Shown here piece by piece: positions 2,450 to 64,000 of a DNA stretch of 64,000 nt. Every line of letters starts with the position of its first letter. The first letter of the stretch is position 1. Location: the NCBI RefSeq assembly GCF_056712565.1, contig NZ_CM160072.1, one strand, 5' to 3'. Both the position numbers and the translations under genes were made by a program. Under the pieces are notes generated by a model. That model was given only the letters and a program-made list of their open reading frames with translations. It was not told where the DNA came from and made no database searches.

Positions 2450-3577
2450 ATGTCGTGCCCGGTTATTGAGCTGACACAACAGCTTATTCGCCGCCCTTCC
2501 CTGAGTCCTGATGACGCAGGATGCCAGGCTTTGTTGATTGAACGTTTGCAGGCGATCGGTTTTACCGTTGAACGCATGGACTTTGCCGATACGCAGAATT
2601 TTTGGGCATGGCGTGGGCAGGGTGAAACGTTAGCCTTTGCCGGGCATACCGACGTGGTGCCGCCTGGCGACGCCGACCGTTGGATCAATCCGCCGTTTGA
2701 ACCAACCATTCGTGACGGCATGTTATTCGGGCGCGGTGCGGCAGATATGAAAGGCTCGCTGGCGGCGATGGTGGTAGCTGCAGAACGTTTTGTCGCACAA
2801 CATCCCAACCATACGGGGCGACTGGCATTTCTGATCACCTCTGATGAAGAAGCCAGTGCACACAATGGTACGGTAAAAGTCGTCGAAGCGTTAATGGCAC
2901 GTAATGAGCGTCTCGATTACTGCCTGGTTGGCGAACCGTCGAGTATCGAAGTGGTAGGTGATGTGGTGAAAAATGGTCGTCGCGGATCGTTAACCTGCAA
3001 CCTTACCATTCATGGCGTTCAGGGGCATGTTGCCTACCCACATCTGGCTGACAATCCGGTACATCGCGCAGCACCTTTCATTAATGAATTAGTGGCTATT
3101 GAGTGGGATCAGGGTAATGAATTCTTCCCGGCGACCAGTATGCAGATTGCCAATATTCAGGCGGGAACGGGCAGTAACAACGTTATTCCAGGTGAACTGT
3201 TTGTGCAGTTTAACTTCCGCTTTAGCACCGAACTGACGGATGAGATGATCAAAGCGCAGGTGCTTGCCCTGCTTGAAAAACATCAACTGCGCTATACGGT
3301 GGATTGGTGGCTTTCCGGGCAGCCATTTTTGACCGCGCGCGGTAAACTGGTGGATGCGGTCGTTAACGCGGTTGAGCACTATAATGAAATTAAACCGCAG
3401 CTACTGACCACAGGCGGAACGTCCGACGGGCGCTTTATTGCCCGCATGGGGGCGCAGGTGGTGGAACTCGGGCCGGTCAATGCCACGATTCATAAAATTA
3501 ATGAATGTGTGAACGCTGCCGACCTGCAGCTACTTGCCCGTATGTATCAACGTATCATGGAACAGCTCGTCGCCTGA
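2450..3577 (+). CDS. dapE: Succinyl-diaminopimelate desuccinylase
   Basis: 375-aa ORF, M20 peptidase family motifs, synteny. Confidence 0.95.
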
Positions 3578-3604
3578 TGAGTGGTTCTGCAAGAGGAAAT
3601 AAGC

Positions 3605-3805
3605 ATGGACTGGCTGGCTAAATATTGGTGGATTCTGGTGATTGTCTTTTTGGTAGGCGTCCTGCTGAACGTGATTAAAGATCTCAAGCGCGTCGACCAT
3701 AAGAAATTTCTCGCCAACAAGCCGGAGCTTCCCCCGCATCGTGATTTCAACGATAAGTGGGACGATGACGACGACTGGCCGAAAAAGGATCAACCGAAGA
3801 AGTAA
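3605..3805 (+). CDS. ypfN: Small membrane protein YpfN (66 aa)
   Basis: ATG 3605 with RBS AGAGGA; TM helix then acidic tail; ORF track start 3581 is an upstream extension. Confidence 0.75.
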
Positions 3806-3813
3806 GCTAAGTG

Positions 3814-3872
3814 GCCGGATAAGGCGTTAACGCCCCGGCCATGATGCCTGATACAGTCTTATCAGGCCTACC
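3814..3872. repeat. REP (repetitive extragenic palindrome) elements
   Basis: GCCGGATAAGGCG... and GCCTGATA...TATCAGGCCTAC palindromic units between ypfN and ypfH. Confidence 0.5.
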
Positions 3873-3881
3873 CGGCTATTA

Positions 3882-4580
3882 TTACATCATTTCAATCACA
3901 TCATCATCGCCAGGCTTACCGCCACTTAGCGCTTCGTCGAAATAATGTTTCGGAATGGTATAACGCAAGTGATCCAGGGCTAATTGCATACTGCGATTGT
4001 CGATCGCATGGCCTAAATCCTCCACGATATCCAGCGTCACATCGCCACCGGCACTGATTAACGCTTCCTGCGCCGCAACCGCATGCGCCAGATCGATAAC
4101 CGGATCTTCACCGCCATGAATCAAGTGAATTGTTGTGGCTGTAGACGCGGTTTCCGGCAGGCTCGCGTAGCGTCCGTTGAAGGCAATGACGCGCGAAGCA
4201 AGGCCCGGTTCGGCTTTAATGCTCTCCAGCGCCATAATCGCGCCTTGTGAGAAACCGATTAGCGCCGTGGCATTAGCCCCTACTCCGCTTTGTTTCTGCC
4301 AGTAGCGCACCGTCTCAATAAACGTCGGCATGATGGCATTCACACGCGCCTGGCGATTATCTTCCGTAATACCCTGCACCGAAAACCACTGACGCCCCGC
4401 CGGATTACCGCTCGGCTCCGCGCCACCGACACTCACCACCAGCGCATCAGGAAACAGCGGCGCAAACCAGCTACCTATTTCCCCCATTGCCACCGGGTTA
4501 TCCCCGACACCGTGGAAAAGCAGTAACAACTGTTGTGCTGGTTTATCCGGGCTTTGAACAACAAAATGGTCATGTTTCAT
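3882..4580 (-). CDS. ypfH: Esterase YpfH (alpha/beta hydrolase)
   Basis: Start at ATG 4580 (MKHDHF...) with RBS AAGGAG 6 nt upstream; ORF track start 4604 is an extension. Confidence 0.85.
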   Translation of the reverse strand: MKHDHFVVQSPDKPAQQLLLLFHGVGDNPVAMGEIGSWFAPLFPDALVVSVGGAEPSGNPAGRQWFSVQGITEDNRQARVNAIMPTFIETVRYWQKQSGVGANATALIGFSQGAIMALESIKAEPGLASRVIAFNGRYASLPETASTATTIHLIHGGEDPVIDLAHAVAAQEALISAGGDVTLDIVEDLGHAIDNRSMQLALDHLRYTIPKHYFDEALSGGKPGDDDVIEMM

Positions 4581-4653
4581 GGCGAACTCCTTAACTGATG
4601 TCATTAATTTTACGCCGCTGACTCACAATGACCATGGGAGAAAATTGAAGGAG

Positions 4654-6669
4654 TCAGTGAAAAAATTGCCATTGCGTTATGCGATCGCGCAGACGCTCAG
4701 TGCGAACATCATCAAGTGCGAATAGCGCCTGCGCGGCCTCTTCCCGCTGGCGAACCAGTAACAGCTTACGGCCTGAAAGTTTAAGTGTGGTACATAACTG
4801 CGCGTCACTGGCGTTTTTCTGTAAACGCCCACGCAGCGCCGGTAATGCCAGTTCGCTGGTTTGTAGCAAACGCAATAAGCAACCTAACGATGTTAATAGC
4901 GGACGATGAGTGAAAGCAAAACCGGCCAGTTCAAGCCAGTCGTCGTCAGAAAGGACGGCATCGTTTAGTGGATCAACAGGAAGCATTTCGCCATTCCACT
5001 GCGCGAGAGCTTGCGCATCGCGACGTAAACGGTAATGCTCACGTTCAGCCAGTTGTTTACCCGCATCACTCATCGGTAACAGCGCCATCGCCGTATAGCA
5101 ACCGCTGCTGGCTTCACGATGATTACCCATTCGCACCAGCACAAAACCGCAGCGTTGCCAGAAACGCCATAACTCCTCGGTGTAACCAAAACTCACCGAA
5201 AGATAGTCGAGGTCATGAATATATTGCAAAGCACCAGCAATCAGTTGCTGACCTGTGCCTTCCCGCTGACGAGCCGGATGAACTGCTATTCGGCTGACCC
5301 GCCTTCCGCGCAATGTCGCCGCCAGTGGATTGCTGCCGTGCGCCGCCAGCGACTGGGCCACCAGATTACCCCGCGGGCGACGAAAACCTGCCCATACCGC
5401 CTGACTGAGTTCTTGAGATAATCCGCCCTCATCCACCAGCCACAGCGCCCCGGCAATCTCGTTTTCGCCAGCCGCCTGTAAAAAATGTTGACCTGGTGCA
5501 TCCATCATGCGGCGTAAATCCAGCGGCGAAGTCCGGTAGTGCGCACCAGACAATAATTGATAAACCTTTAACGGCGTTTCTGGCTCGCTTCGCCATAACG
5601 TCTGTTCAAATGCGGAAATAACGATATTGCCTTGTGGTGTATGGGTGAAGTTTTCATCGTCAAACACCAGTGCCTCACTAACCATTTTTTCCAGCGGGCA
5701 TCCCTGCGCCCAACGGATCGGCTGTTGTAGTTCAAAACGGTGTAAATGCGGAAAGCGAGCGCAAAATTTCAGCAAAAAACCACGTCCGGTGCCTTCGTAG
5801 CCCTGCACCGTAGTGGTTAACAACGTTCGAGGAAAACGCGATACCAGTTGATACAACAACGGCGCAGGTATAGCTGCGGCTTCATCGACCACCAGCCAGT
5901 CGGCTTGCTCATCGCTGGCTAACAAGGCATCCGGTGCAATAAAGCGAAACTTCTCACCCGCAAATTGTGCCAGTACATCCGTTGCCGCTTTTGCGGGCGC
6001 GGTGACAATCGCACTGCCCGCAATACGAGAAATGAGTTGCCCTGCCAACGCCGACTTACCGCGCCCACGCGCAGCAGTTACCGCTGCCACGCCCGGCGGC
6101 ATGGTCAGTAGCTGCTGTAAGAGTTGCTGTTGTTCTGGTTGTGGTGCGCCGGTAGCGGGGTGCCAGTCAGTACGGGGAGTAAAATGCGCCAACGAGAACG
6201 GCTGGTTTTGCCGCCAGAGGATAGCGTCGTTATTCGCCGTAAGTACGCGTTTGAAATGCTGGACAAAATGCGGCGTCGCAATAGGGTCAGGGCAATCACT
6301 CCAGCGCAGCGAGTCGGCATCAGGTTGGTTTTCCCACTCATCCCATACAGGGAGTAACAACACCAGCCAGCTTCCCGCTTTCAACGTTCCGCTAAGTGCC
6401 GCAAAGGCAGCGGCATCAAAGCCTTGGCGGGCGTCGAATACCGCATGCCGGAACTCGCGCCCAAGTAAAGTTTGTAGTGCCGAGGGAGAACAGTGGTTTT
6501 CAGCATCTGGCTGCGGCGAAATCCACAGCCAGTCGCCAGGTAAGGCATCACGCAACTTAAGCGCATGATCAAAACACCAACGCTCTTCCCCGCTCAACAC
6601 CAGCAAGCGGCGGATCCCTTCACGTTTCATTTGCGCTGTTAATGTGTGAAGCGCAGTCAGTTCAGCCAT
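4654..6669 (-). CDS. tmcA: tRNA(Met) cytidine acetyltransferase TmcA
   Basis: 671-aa ORF, helicase-like ATPase plus GNAT domain, synteny. Confidence 0.9.
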   Translation of the reverse strand: MAELTALHTLTAQMKREGIRRLLVLSGEERWCFDHALKLRDALPGDWLWISPQPDAENHCSPSALQTLLGREFRHAVFDARQGFDAAAFAALSGTLKAGSWLVLLLPVWDEWENQPDADSLRWSDCPDPIATPHFVQHFKRVLTANNDAILWRQNQPFSLAHFTPRTDWHPATGAPQPEQQQLLQQLLTMPPGVAAVTAARGRGKSALAGQLISRIAGSAIVTAPAKAATDVLAQFAGEKFRFIAPDALLASDEQADWLVVDEAAAIPAPLLYQLVSRFPRTLLTTTVQGYEGTGRGFLLKFCARFPHLHRFELQQPIRWAQGCPLEKMVSEALVFDDENFTHTPQGNIVISAFEQTLWRSEPETPLKVYQLLSGAHYRTSPLDLRRMMDAPGQHFLQAAGENEIAGALWLVDEGGLSQELSQAVWAGFRRPRGNLVAQSLAAHGSNPLAATLRGRRVSRIAVHPARQREGTGQQLIAGALQYIHDLDYLSVSFGYTEELWRFWQRCGFVLVRMGNHREASSGCYTAMALLPMSDAGKQLAEREHYRLRRDAQALAQWNGEMLPVDPLNDAVLSDDDWLELAGFAFTHRPLLTSLGCLLRLLQTSELALPALRGRLQKNASDAQLCTTLKLSGRKLLLVRQREEAAQALFALDDVRTERLRDRITQWQFFH

Positions 6670-10715: not shown

Positions 10716-11288
10716 TTGACACTGTCATCGCAACATTATCTGGTGATCACTGCGTTGGGTGCCGATCGCCCTGGAATAGTGAACACCATCACCCGTCATG
10801 TCAGTAGTTGCGGCTGTAATATTGAAGACAGTCGCCTGGCGATGCTGGGAGAAGAGTTCACGTTTATCATGCTGCTTTCCGGTTCATGGAATGCCATTAC
10901 TCTGATTGAATCAACGTTACCGTTGAAAGGTGCCGAGCTGGATCTTTTAATCGTGATGAAGCGCACGACGGCGCGTCCGCGTCCGCCAATGCCAGCATCT
11001 GTCTGGGTTCAGGTCGATGTGGCAGACTCCCCGCATTTAATTGAACGCTTCACAGCACTTTTCGACGCGCATCATATGAACATTGCGGAGCTGGTGTCGC
11101 GCACGCAACCTGCTGAAAATGAAAGGGCTGCGCAGTTGCATATTCAGATAACTGCCCACAGCCCCGCATCTGCGGACGCAGCAAATATTGAGCAAGCGTT
11201 CAAAGCCCTATGTACAGAACTCAATGCACAAGGCAGTATTAACGTCGTCAATTATTCCCAACATGATGAACAGGATGGAGTTAAGTAA
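10716..11288 (+). CDS. gcvR: Glycine cleavage system transcriptional repressor GcvR
   Basis: 190 aa, probable TTG start at 10716 (LTLSSQHYLV) preceded by GAAGGA; ACT-domain protein. Confidence 0.8.
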   Translation: MTLSSQHYLVITALGADRPGIVNTITRHVSSCGCNIEDSRLAMLGEEFTFIMLLSGSWNAITLIESTLPLKGAELDLLIVMKRTTARPRPPMPASVWVQVDVADSPHLIERFTALFDAHHMNIAELVSRTQPAENERAAQLHIQITAHSPASADAANIEQAFKALCTELNAQGSINVVNYSQHDEQDGVK

Positions 11289-11758: not shown

Positions 11759-11856
11759 TTACTTTGCTCCATTCCGTGCTGGCTGCGCTTGCGGCCAGCA
11801 CATCTCAAATCTTCTCACTGCCCTGCAACACTCGTTTAAAATTTTTTCGCTGAAGG

Positions 11857-12918
11857 TCAGTCTTGCGCGATTTGCCCATCAGGCCAGGCGTGAATCACGG
11901 CTTTGATCAGCGTCGCCAATGGAATAGCGAAGAATACGCCCCAGAATCCCCACAAACCACCGAAGATCACCACCGATAAAATAATCACCAGAGGATGCAG
12001 GTTAACCGCTTCGGAGAACAACACCGGTACTAACAGGTTGCCGTCCAGCGCCTGAATAATCAGATACACCGCGAAGCAGCTCCAGAATTCCGTGCCAGCA
12101 CCAAACTGGAATAGCGCCACGCCAACCACCGGAATGGTCACCACAAATGCGCCAATGTACGGAATAAGTACCGAGAAGCCGACCAGCACCGCCAGCAGCA
12201 GCGAATAGTTCAGCCCAAAGAGCAAGAACCCCAGCCAGGTGGCGATCCCTACCACGATCATCTCCAGCACTTTGCCGCGGATATAGTTGGTGATTTGTTG
12301 ATTCATCTCCTTCCACACCTGTCCTGCCAGTCCACGGTTGCGCGGCAGCACCCGGCGAACGGCGTTCAGCATCTGCTCTTTGTCTTTCAGCAGGAAGAAG
12401 ACCATCAATGGCACCAGCACCAGATAGACGGCAATGGTCAGCAAACCAACCAACGAGGCGAGGGAAATTTTCACCACCGAATCGCCCATGGTCAGCATCC
12501 GACTGCGCATATTTTCAGCCATTGCATCAATAATGCCCGCATCCATTAACGCCGGATAGCGGCGCGGCAACGTGGCGGCAAAGTCAGAAAGCTTATTGAG
12601 CATCCCCGGCATATCGCGGATTAAGTAGATGCCCTGCTGCCAGGCGATAGGCAGTACCACGAACGCCATCAGTAGCAGGATGCCCACAAACAGGATCAGC
12701 ACGATAGATGTCGCCCAAGGGCGGGAACAGCCAATAGACTGCAGGCGGACAGTCGGCCATTCCAGTAAATAGGCCAGCACAATAGCCACCAGCAACGGCG
12801 CGAGTAGGCCGCTAAAGAAAAAGATAATGCCAAAACCAGCAACCAAAATAACCAGCAAGGCAATCGCTTCCGGGTCGCTAAAACGGCGGCGATACCATTG
12901 CATCAACATTTCGAGCAT
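11857..12918 (-). CDS. perM: Permease PerM (AI-2E transporter family)
   Basis: 353-aa polytopic membrane protein; K-12 neighbour of bepA. Confidence 0.85.
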   Translation of the reverse strand: MLEMLMQWYRRRFSDPEAIALLVILVAGFGIIFFFSGLLAPLLVAIVLAYLLEWPTVRLQSIGCSRPWATSIVLILFVGILLLMAFVVLPIAWQQGIYLIRDMPGMLNKLSDFAATLPRRYPALMDAGIIDAMAENMRSRMLTMGDSVVKISLASLVGLLTIAVYLVLVPLMVFFLLKDKEQMLNAVRRVLPRNRGLAGQVWKEMNQQITNYIRGKVLEMIVVGIATWLGFLLFGLNYSLLLAVLVGFSVLIPYIGAFVVTIPVVGVALFQFGAGTEFWSCFAVYLIIQALDGNLLVPVLFSEAVNLHPLVIILSVVIFGGLWGFWGVFFAIPLATLIKAVIHAWPDGQIAQD

Positions 12919-13130: not shown

Positions 13131-14594
13131 ATGTTCAGGCAGTTGAAAAAAAACCTGGTTGCAACCCTCATTGCTGCTATGACCATTGGTCAGGTAGCCC
13201 CGGCGTTTGCCGACAGCGCAGACACCTTGCCGGATATGGGAACCTCCGCAGGAAGCACACTTTCCATTGGTCAGGAAATGCAGATGGGCGACTATTATGT
13301 CCGCCAGTTACGCGGCAGCGCGCCGTTAATTAATGATCCGCTGTTAACGCAATACATTAATTCGCTAGGAATGCGTCTGGTTTCGCATGCCAATTCGGTT
13401 AAGACACCGTTTCATTTCTTTCTGATCAACAACGATGAAATTAACGCCTTTGCTTTCTTTGGCGGCAACGTGGTGCTGCACTCTGCCCTGTTCCGTTATT
13501 CCGATAACGAAAGTCAACTGGCTTCAGTTATGGCGCACGAAATCTCCCACGTCACCCAACGTCACCTGGCGCGAGCGATGGAAGATCAGCAGCGCAGCGC
13601 GCCGCTGACCTGGGTCGGCGCGTTAGGTTCTATTTTACTGGCGATGGCCAGTCCGCAGGCGGGGATGGCGGCGCTGACCGGTACACTGGCGGGAACGCGC
13701 CAGGGGATGATCAGTTTCACCCAGCAAAATGAACAGGAAGCGGACCGCATTGGTATTCAGGTGCTGCAACGCTCGGGATTCGATCCGCAGGCGATGCCGA
13801 CCTTCCTCGAAAAATTACTCGATCAGGCGCGTTACTCTTCGCGCCCACCAGAAATTCTGCTCACTCACCCACTACCGGAAAGCCGTCTGGCTGATGCCCG
13901 TAACCGTGCCAATCAGATGAGCCCGATAGTGGTGCAATCGTCAGAAGATTTCTATCTGGCAAAAGTGCGCACACTGGGGATGTACAATTCAGGGCGTAAC
14001 CAACTCACCAGTGATTTGCTGGATGAATGGGCGAAAGGAAACGTTCGTCAGCAACGAGCGGCGCAATATGGTCGTGCTTTACAGGCGATGGAAGCCAATA
14101 AATACGACGAGGCGCGTAAAACGCTGCAACCGTTACTGGCGGCAGAACCTGGCAACGCATGGTATCTCGATCTGGCTACCGATATCGATCTTGGGCAAAA
14201 CAAAGCCAATGACGCTATCAATCGCCTGAAAAATGCCCGCGATTTGCGCACCAATCCGGTGTTGCAGCTCAACCTGGCGAACGCTTATCTGCAAGGGGGG
14301 CAACCACAGGAAGCGGCCAATATTCTGAATCGCTACACTTTTAACAATAAAGATGACAGCAACGGCTGGGATTTACTGGCACAGGCGGAAGCCGCACTAA
14401 ATAACCGCGATCAGGAACTGGCTGCGCGAGCAGAAGGTTATGCGCTCGCCGGGCGACTCGATCAGGCTATTTCCTTGTTGAGTAGCGCCAGTTCGCAGGT
14501 GAAATTAGGCAGCCTGCAACAAGCGCGTTACGATGCGCGCATCGACCAGTTGCGCCAGCTGCAGGAACGCTTTAAGCCTTATACCAAGATGTAA
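13131..14594 (+). CDS. bepA: Periplasmic metalloprotease/chaperone BepA (M48 plus TPR)
   Basis: 487 aa, signal peptide, HEISH zinc motif, TPR C-terminus. Confidence 0.9.
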
Positions 14595-63957: not shown

Positions 63958-64000
63958 ATGAAAGGTGCATTAGGTAAGAAGGAACTCCTGGCGGTGGTGC
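63958..64000 (+). CDS. Start of next early gene (truncated by window end)
   Basis: ATG 63958 (MKGALGKKELLAVV) with RBS AGAGAGG. Confidence 0.3.
   Translation, partial: MKGALGKKELLAVV

Follow-up and report, generated by a model that had tools for sequence, protein, structure and literature searches.

The 98 bp that separate bcp from perM in the window, i.e. the whole stretch of 64,000 nucleotides analysed here, are in our view the hyf-less allele of a known presence/absence polymorphism of E. coli which is typical for phylogroup B2. We give a probability of roughly two in three to the reading that this spacer is an old deletion scar and that the scar and hyf alleles predate the radiation of the species. 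The scar would consist of the bcp stem-loop, some 50 nt of degenerate sequence from upstream of hyf and a single GCTGAA in front of the perM stop codon. The features of the locus are listed in Table 1.

Table 1 Features of the gcvR-bepA region, with window coordinates, strand and the evidence on which each feature is based.
Feature	Coordinates	Strand	Evidence or comment
gcvR	10716..11288	+	NF008612 at 397 bits; upstream neighbour of bcp
bcp, thioredoxin-dependent thiol peroxidase, 156 aa	11288..11758	+	ORF; NF006960 at 309.9 bits (cut-off 140)
bcp-perM spacer, 98 bp, convergent flanking genes	11759..11856	.	K-12 has hyfA-R and focB at the same site
Hairpin, 11-bp stem, 4-nt loop	11776..11801	+	GTGCTGGCTGC GCTT GCGGCCAGCAC; inverted-repeat search and fold
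Decayed remnant, promoter-distal part of the hyf upstream region (putative)	11802..11848	+	Local and multiple alignment
GCTGAA junction microhomology	11849..11854	+	Two bases before the perM stop codon; once at the window junction
perM (yfgO), AI-2E family transporter, 353 aa	11857..12918	-	ORF; PF01594; RefSeq annotation
bepA, downstream neighbour	13131..14594	+	NF052400 at 740.5 bits

The window Bcp is identical to that of K-12 (100% amino acid identity), and the perM product shares 98.9% of its residues with K-12 YfgO, the name yfgO being taken for the 353-aa open reading frame from RefSeq records with 100% identity over 2.5 kb. The gcvR stop overlaps the bcp start, K-12 GcvR matches positions 10716-11285 of the window with 100% identity (tblastn), and the RefSeq annotation at the identical ATCC 11775 locus agrees with this assignment; the neighbours are dapA, gcvR, bepA and arsC/yfgD. 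The genes bcp and yfgO/perM are adjacent and convergent with neither hyf nor focB between them, which fits a hyf-less allele of the B2 type.

In MG1655, the gene order is bcp - hyfABCDEFGHIJR - focB - yfgO and the distance from the bcp stop to the yfgO stop amounts to 13,871 bp. The missing hydrogenase-4 (hyf) and focB block comprises about 13.8 kb in K-12, and along with hyfA-J it is hyfR and focB that are missing. Except for this block, the window is collinear with K-12 from position 1 to 28009, and the Hyf and FocB proteins had no tblastn match anywhere in the 64-kb window. An earlier note on this DNA had described a gap of 98 bp with one hairpin, which is exact according to the ORF coordinates and a repeat search; it had further placed hyfA-R and focB, roughly 13 kb, between bcp and perM in K-12, in agreement with the MG1655 annotation, and its claim that hyf-focB is absent here is borne out by the tblastn search. 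Alignment to MG1655 and to B2 genomes, which the same note had suggested as a check, confirmed both the gene order and the shared junction.

Other parts of the window also depart from K-12. Divergence is raised to 3-4% at about 3500-6500, compared with 1-2% in the neighbouring sequence, and the bin 3501-4000 contains 33 gap columns; by offset, positions 3501-6500 correspond to the ypfN-ypfH-tmcA region. Collinearity with K-12 ends after yfgI, and guaA is not reached by position 64000. Positions 28010-64000 are a prophage, which is in blocks about 98% identical to the IAI39 prophage at the same yfgI/guaA site; in the annotation of the latter there is an endosialidase tailspike, in a region that has its match in the window. 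Of the phage records, phiV10, phiv142-3 and HEMP4 come closest to the first 25 kb (28010-52900), with about 96-97% identity over 52-55%. ATCC 11775 has no prophage at the yfgI/guaA site. Its yfgJ-xseA interval (locus L097, 20570-31978), a part of the chromosome that lies beyond the prophage and outside the window, carries sinH, sinI and an 8-kb adhesin gene, none of which is found in K-12.

The distribution of the two states was assessed in 5,426 complete E. coli genomes. A 2.5-kb probe spanning the junction was contiguous in 1,126 of them and split in two in the others, and an 80-bp junction-specific probe likewise recovered 1,126 genomes, all with at least 90% identity, among which are ATCC 11775, UTI89, NU14, E2348/69 and ST131 strains. 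The 4-kb hyfA-D probe matched 4,299 genomes, always on the chromosome and with at least 97.9% identity for full-length matches. The two counts add up to 5,425, i.e. all complete genomes with the locus, and the two states are therefore complementary at megablast sensitivity; from this we conclude that, at this sensitivity, hyf has not been relocated elsewhere in the complete-genome set. The junction had been proposed as a lineage marker, and indeed it is common to 1,126 genomes at 90% identity or more, classic B2 strains included. The window is 100% identical over 2.5 kb to ATCC 11775, S88 and APEC O1, and its junction is 100% identical to that of the B2 references ATCC 11775, UTI89, NU14, S88 and APEC O1; judged by this sequence identity to known B2 strains, the window would belong to B2, the Clermont markers chuA, yjaA and TspE4.C2 being located outside its 64 kb.

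One plasmid-labelled record among the matches carries the bcp-perM junction region and is probably either a chromosomal replicon with a wrong label or a large capture of chromosomal DNA. The perM end of the chicken isolate GPEC1352 is of the hyf-less type but only 95.9% identical, and judging by this isolate the allele without hyf may occur outside B2 as well.

The polymorphism itself is already known, since Touchon et al. (2009, PLoS Genet 5:e1000344, Table 5; PMC2617782) list hyfABCDEFGHIJ as specifically absent from B2. The locus and the missing gene set are the same as here, whereas that paper deals with gene content only. To this we add the breakpoints, the upstream remnant and the finding that E. 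albertii has the scar as well; the scar anatomy and its occurrence in both are a minor refinement. Gonzalez-Alba et al. (2019, BMC Genomics 20:936; PMC6896753) likewise treat hyf as a lineage-level loss including B2 and state that the F-G-B2 lineage lost the hyf operon. However, the hyfA-focB block is complete in IAI39, a strain of phylogroup F, which contradicts a loss across the whole F-G-B2 lineage; the loss does not cover all of F. In IAI39 (NC_011750.1; locus L086, 18672-20684), hyfR has an internal stop and is given as a pseudogene in the annotation, and in several hyf-carrying draft contigs (L088, L089, L091-L093, L096) hyfB is split or uncalled, which hints at a decay of hyf in some of the lineages that retain it.

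Starting at the bcp stop, the window equals K-12 until the hairpin ends at 11801, and beyond this position identity collapses. The blastn blocks between window and K-12 end at 11816 and restart at 11849, limits that were later refined by alignment. The roughly 50 nt after the hairpin (11802 to about 11854) align to about the first 85-89 nt of the K-12 bcp-hyfA spacer, where TCAAATCTTCTC, CCCTGCAACACTCGTTTAAA and TTTTTTCGCTGAA of the remnant are the counterparts of GATCACATTCTC, CCCTGCGACACGGGTGTCGAA and TTTTTTGCTGAA of K-12, respectively. The local score of this alignment was 28, compared with 14.8 +/- 2.5 for dinucleotide shuffles, and was reached by 2 of 5,000 shuffles; for the E. albertii scar against the K-12 hyf upstream region, the score was reached by 67 of 5,000. 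On the perM side of the junction, the window is collinear with K-12 from 11849 onwards. The hexamer GCTGAA is present twice in the intact allele and once in the scar. Its K-12 copies are located at 2601061, upstream of the hyf promoter, and at 2614812, beside the perM stop, which is a distance of 13,751 bp; when extended to 11 positions, the two copies agree at 9, with an exact part of 6 nt, and IAI39 also has both repeats.

From the alignments, we read the bcp-perM spacer as a deletion scar. By recombination or slippage between the GCTGAA repeats, the promoter, hyfABCDEFGHIJR, focB and the hairpin on the focB side would be lost, and such a deletion from GCTGAA to GCTGAA would yield exactly the junction seen. 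With two repeat copies in the intact allele, one in the scar and a scar that keeps sequence from both sides, this resembles microhomology-mediated deletions between short direct repeats in bacteria. It differs from them in that the repeat is exact over 6 nt only (9/11), in that the event is old and in that we infer the mechanism from the junction alone. As an alternative reading, the repeat of 6 exact nucleotides (9/11 when extended) could be a target-site duplication.

The hairpin, with arms at 11776-11786 and 11791-11801, is the sole inverted repeat in the gap and the final stretch of the spacer that is identical to K-12. It dominates the predicted fold of the spacer on the + strand (-25.2 kcal/mol, z = -2.85) and is probably the stem-loop at the 3' end of bcp. 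The stem is G+C-rich, there is no U-run 3' of it on either strand (ATCTCAAATC on +, GGAATGGAGC on -), and a terminator scan of the spacer did not call it; the hairpin may nevertheless serve as a terminator. E. albertii keeps the hairpin with one compensatory pair, T-A to C-G, as read from the alignment. An Rfam covariance-model scan returned nothing in the spacer and a single sub-threshold PhrS match inside bcp (13.6 bits vs a gathering score of 37, E = 0.51). Since the K-12 hairpin on the focB-perM side falls within the missing segment, a single stem-loop is left between bcp and perM, and this one shared hairpin would have to end both the bcp and the perM transcripts.

To place the site in a wider context, one genome per species was scanned with PerM, which resulted in 80 loci. 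In 55 of these, bcp is located at a distance of up to 400 bp from perM (Vibrio, Yersinia, Serratia, Proteus, Enterobacter and others); other cargo separates the two genes at 8 loci, hyf occupies the site at 2, and at the remaining 15 bcp lies outside the locus. Because adjacency is the commonest arrangement across Enterobacterales (55/80), the empty site is ancestral at that depth and hyf was once an insertion. From this we conclude that bcp-perM adjacency is ancestral at the level of the order and that the spacer is a recurrent cargo site. Unrelated cargo was seen at loci L005-L007, L016, L020, L029, L048 and L049. The spacers of Citrobacter werkmanii and C. youngae carry two Gate-domain membrane proteins and an amidohydrolase (2.6 kb), those of strain RIT691 and Pluralibacter a CdaR-type regulator, a GntP permease and a glycerate kinase, and that of Klebsiella sp. 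BIGb0407 Dak1, Fe-ADH, a sigma-54 activator and an MIP channel (dha genes; 8 kb).

Hyf lineages were found by following hyf-bearing loci and HyfR homologues. The complete order bcp-hyfA..R-focB-perM-bepA is present in Enterobacter sp. Bisph1, Citrobacter amalonaticus and an assembly labelled Salmonella enterica, and in a soil metagenome-assembled genome hyfR adjoins perM. Compared with K-12, the Hyf proteins of the other hyf-bearing lineages are 54-89% identical and the flanking proteins 85-98%. The Salmonella-labelled assembly (GCA_025013005.1; loci L103 / L106) carries the full hyfA-R-focB set between bcp and perM, with a HyfR that is 74% identical to that of K-12. Salmonella is usually described as devoid of hydrogenase 4, so that this assembly either stands for a rare lineage or bears a wrong label. 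Two further HyfR homologues (P0003 and P0020, 92-94%) were considered as representatives of other Escherichia species and rejected, being E. coli with errors or pseudogenes: their source assemblies show 97-98.6% DNA identity to K-12 and many split genes. Another homologue (P0010, 79%) was traced to a metagenome contig that is short and has its genes in fragments. When Bcp was looked up by exact sequence, no context other than the two known ones emerged.

In a multiple alignment, the bcp-hyfA spacers of K-12, C. amalonaticus, the Salmonella-labelled assembly and Bisph1 share conserved blocks, namely the palindromes GTGATC-N4-GATCAC and CGACAC-N3-4-TG(T/C)CGA and, as a third block, CTGAACGTTAATGACCATCAYTTTTGT, together with a sigma-54 -24/-12 element (TGGCAT-N5-TTATGCA; TGGCATCCTTTATGCA in K-12) and a ribosome-binding site. 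For the similarity between the upstream regions of K-12 and Bisph1, none of 2,000 shuffles was as good. The left GCTGAA of K-12 sits inside the third block, and the scar segments that align to K-12 coincide with the first two, i.e. the palindromes. Since these blocks are conserved with hyf in other genera, the stretch belongs with hyf, and its degenerate form in the window argues that hyf was once located to its right and that the spacer is a deletion scar rather than a never-occupied site. When the scar was compared directly with the sequences upstream of hyf in Citrobacter, the Salmonella-labelled assembly and Bisph1, the similarity was non-significant; what speaks for a decayed regulatory region is therefore the match with the hyf allele of E. 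coli, together with the conservation of that allele elsewhere. Compared with the K-12 hyf locus, a sigma-54 operon for hydrogenase 4 / formate hydrogenlyase-2, the window keeps only about 50 nt of decayed upstream sequence.

The age of the scar was addressed by comparison with E. albertii and a second non-coli Escherichia assembly, i.e. two species, with E. fergusonii, E. marmotae, E. ruysiae and clade I outside the sample. The bcp-perM spacer of E. albertii has 105 bp, is collinear with the window to the junction (compare TTTTCGCTAAAGGTCAATC with TTTTCGCTGAAGGTCAGTC) and has the same breakpoints. In the second assembly (L004), whose DNA is 92-93.5% identical to both E. coli types, the scar has the same ends with further internal loss. 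Beyond the hairpin, the B2 sequence is 82% identical to that of E. albertii over 62 nt, compared with 66% and 22 gap columns for K-12 and 69% for IAI39, whereas K-12 and IAI39 share 97.6%. The divergence between the scar and hyf alleles is far above what is usual among E. coli strains, from which we conclude that B2 does not descend from a K-12-like chromosome by loss of hyf, and the same junction in E. albertii indicates that the hyf-less state is not a deletion private to B2. Judged by these alignments, the loss of hyf looks older than E. coli and not specific to B2.

The flanks of the scar are different in this respect. E. albertii is about 8.4% divergent from both E. coli types, and at informative sites B2 falls with K-12 to the exclusion of E. 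albertii (left flank, 36:0:0; right flank, 37:6:4), which identifies both flanks as ordinary E. coli sequence. An import of perM together with hyf into the hyf-bearing strains was considered and rejected, since the informative sites (37:6:4) give no support for a long imported flank. Within perM, B2 and K-12 diverge more strongly, by 3-8%. The gene is unusually polymorphic (seen at 11857-12760 of the window), with 2.7% between the window and ST131, both of which are hyf-less, and 4-5% against hyf-bearing strains. In the reading we prefer, the scar and hyf alleles would both predate the radiation of E. coli, one of the two would have reached its present carriers by recombination, and the flanks would have been homogenised later. 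One specific form of this history, to which we give somewhat less than even odds, is that the B2 spacer represents the native, genus-old allele of Escherichia and that hyf was re-acquired later in K-12 and all other phylogroups. This would have happened by homologous replacement from a hyf-bearing enterobacterial relative, and within-species recombination would have erased the donor flanks up to the hairpin and the perM stop codon.

A recent deletion confined to B2, in which a B2 ancestor with a K-12-like bcp-hyf-focB-perM arrangement lost the block via the GCTGAA repeats, would be one alternative. Phylogroup F is often placed beside B2, so that, going by the tree alone, the presence of hyf in the F strain IAI39 agrees with a loss on the B2 branch, and the repeats needed for such an event exist in K-12 and IAI39. 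The literature also treats the absence as a gene loss in B2 (PMC2617782) or F-G-B2 (PMC6896753). However, a recent deletion should have left a remnant about 98% identical to K-12 and IAI39, but 66-69% with 22 gap columns was found, and the remnant is closer to E. albertii (82%), which has the same junction. Moreover, identity to K-12 up to the end of the hairpin followed by abrupt divergence is the signature of two old haplotypes, and we therefore regard a deletion private to B2 as distinctly improbable. That the locus was collapsed by an assembly or scaffolding artefact can practically be dismissed, considering that the identical junction is found in 1,126 independently finished genomes as well as in metagenome and draft contigs (L090, L095).

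The opposite polarity, according to which Escherichia never had hyf at this site, B2 and E. albertii keep the pre-insertion spacer and hyf-focB is an island of other E. coli that duplicated the 11-nt target GCTGAAsrTyA, agrees with bcp-perM adjacency as the rule from Vibrio to Enterobacter (55/80 loci), with the other cargo that the spacer holds in other genera (Gate-domain/amidohydrolase, CdaR/GntP/glycerate kinase and dha genes) and with the match at 9 of 11 positions between the repeats flanking the K-12 block. Yet the left repeat copy is located within the block CTGAACGTTAATGACCATCA, which is conserved with the hyf upstream region of three other genera, and the palindromes to the left of the repeat travel with hyf although a degenerate counterpart of them is present in the scar. 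The K-12 block is also without an annotated integrase, IS or tRNA in or beside it. More specifically, the annotations of MG1655 and IAI39 show no integrase, transposase, tRNA or att-type repeat between bcp and yfgO at either end of the hyf-focB block, the sole repeat there being the one of 6-11 nt. Furthermore, hyf occupies the identical position in four other lineages. A never-occupied site thus appears unlikely to us.

The hyf operon encodes hydrogenase 4 (formate hydrogenlyase-2), HyfR is its activator and FocB is a second formate channel; carriers of the hyf-less allele would accordingly be devoid of hydrogenase 4, of HyfR and of FocB. Passages of PMC7384014 describe native hyf expression in K-12 as poor (citing Skibinski 2002, Self 2004) and the K-12 hyf operon as being without an accessory gene, and the loss is therefore probably of small effect. 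How the enzyme works is seen no differently after the present findings. Their meaning lies in the reference state: about one fifth of the finished E. coli genomes, most extraintestinal pathogens included, are without hydrogenase 4, HyfR and FocB, the bcp/perM site is occupied by hyf-focB in several enterobacterial genera, and K-12 is not the reference state for hydrogen metabolism. The bcp-perM junction provides a clean single-locus marker for chromosomes of the B2 type, and, with an absence that looks older than E. coli, a "loss in B2" probably has the wrong polarity, or at least the wrong timing.
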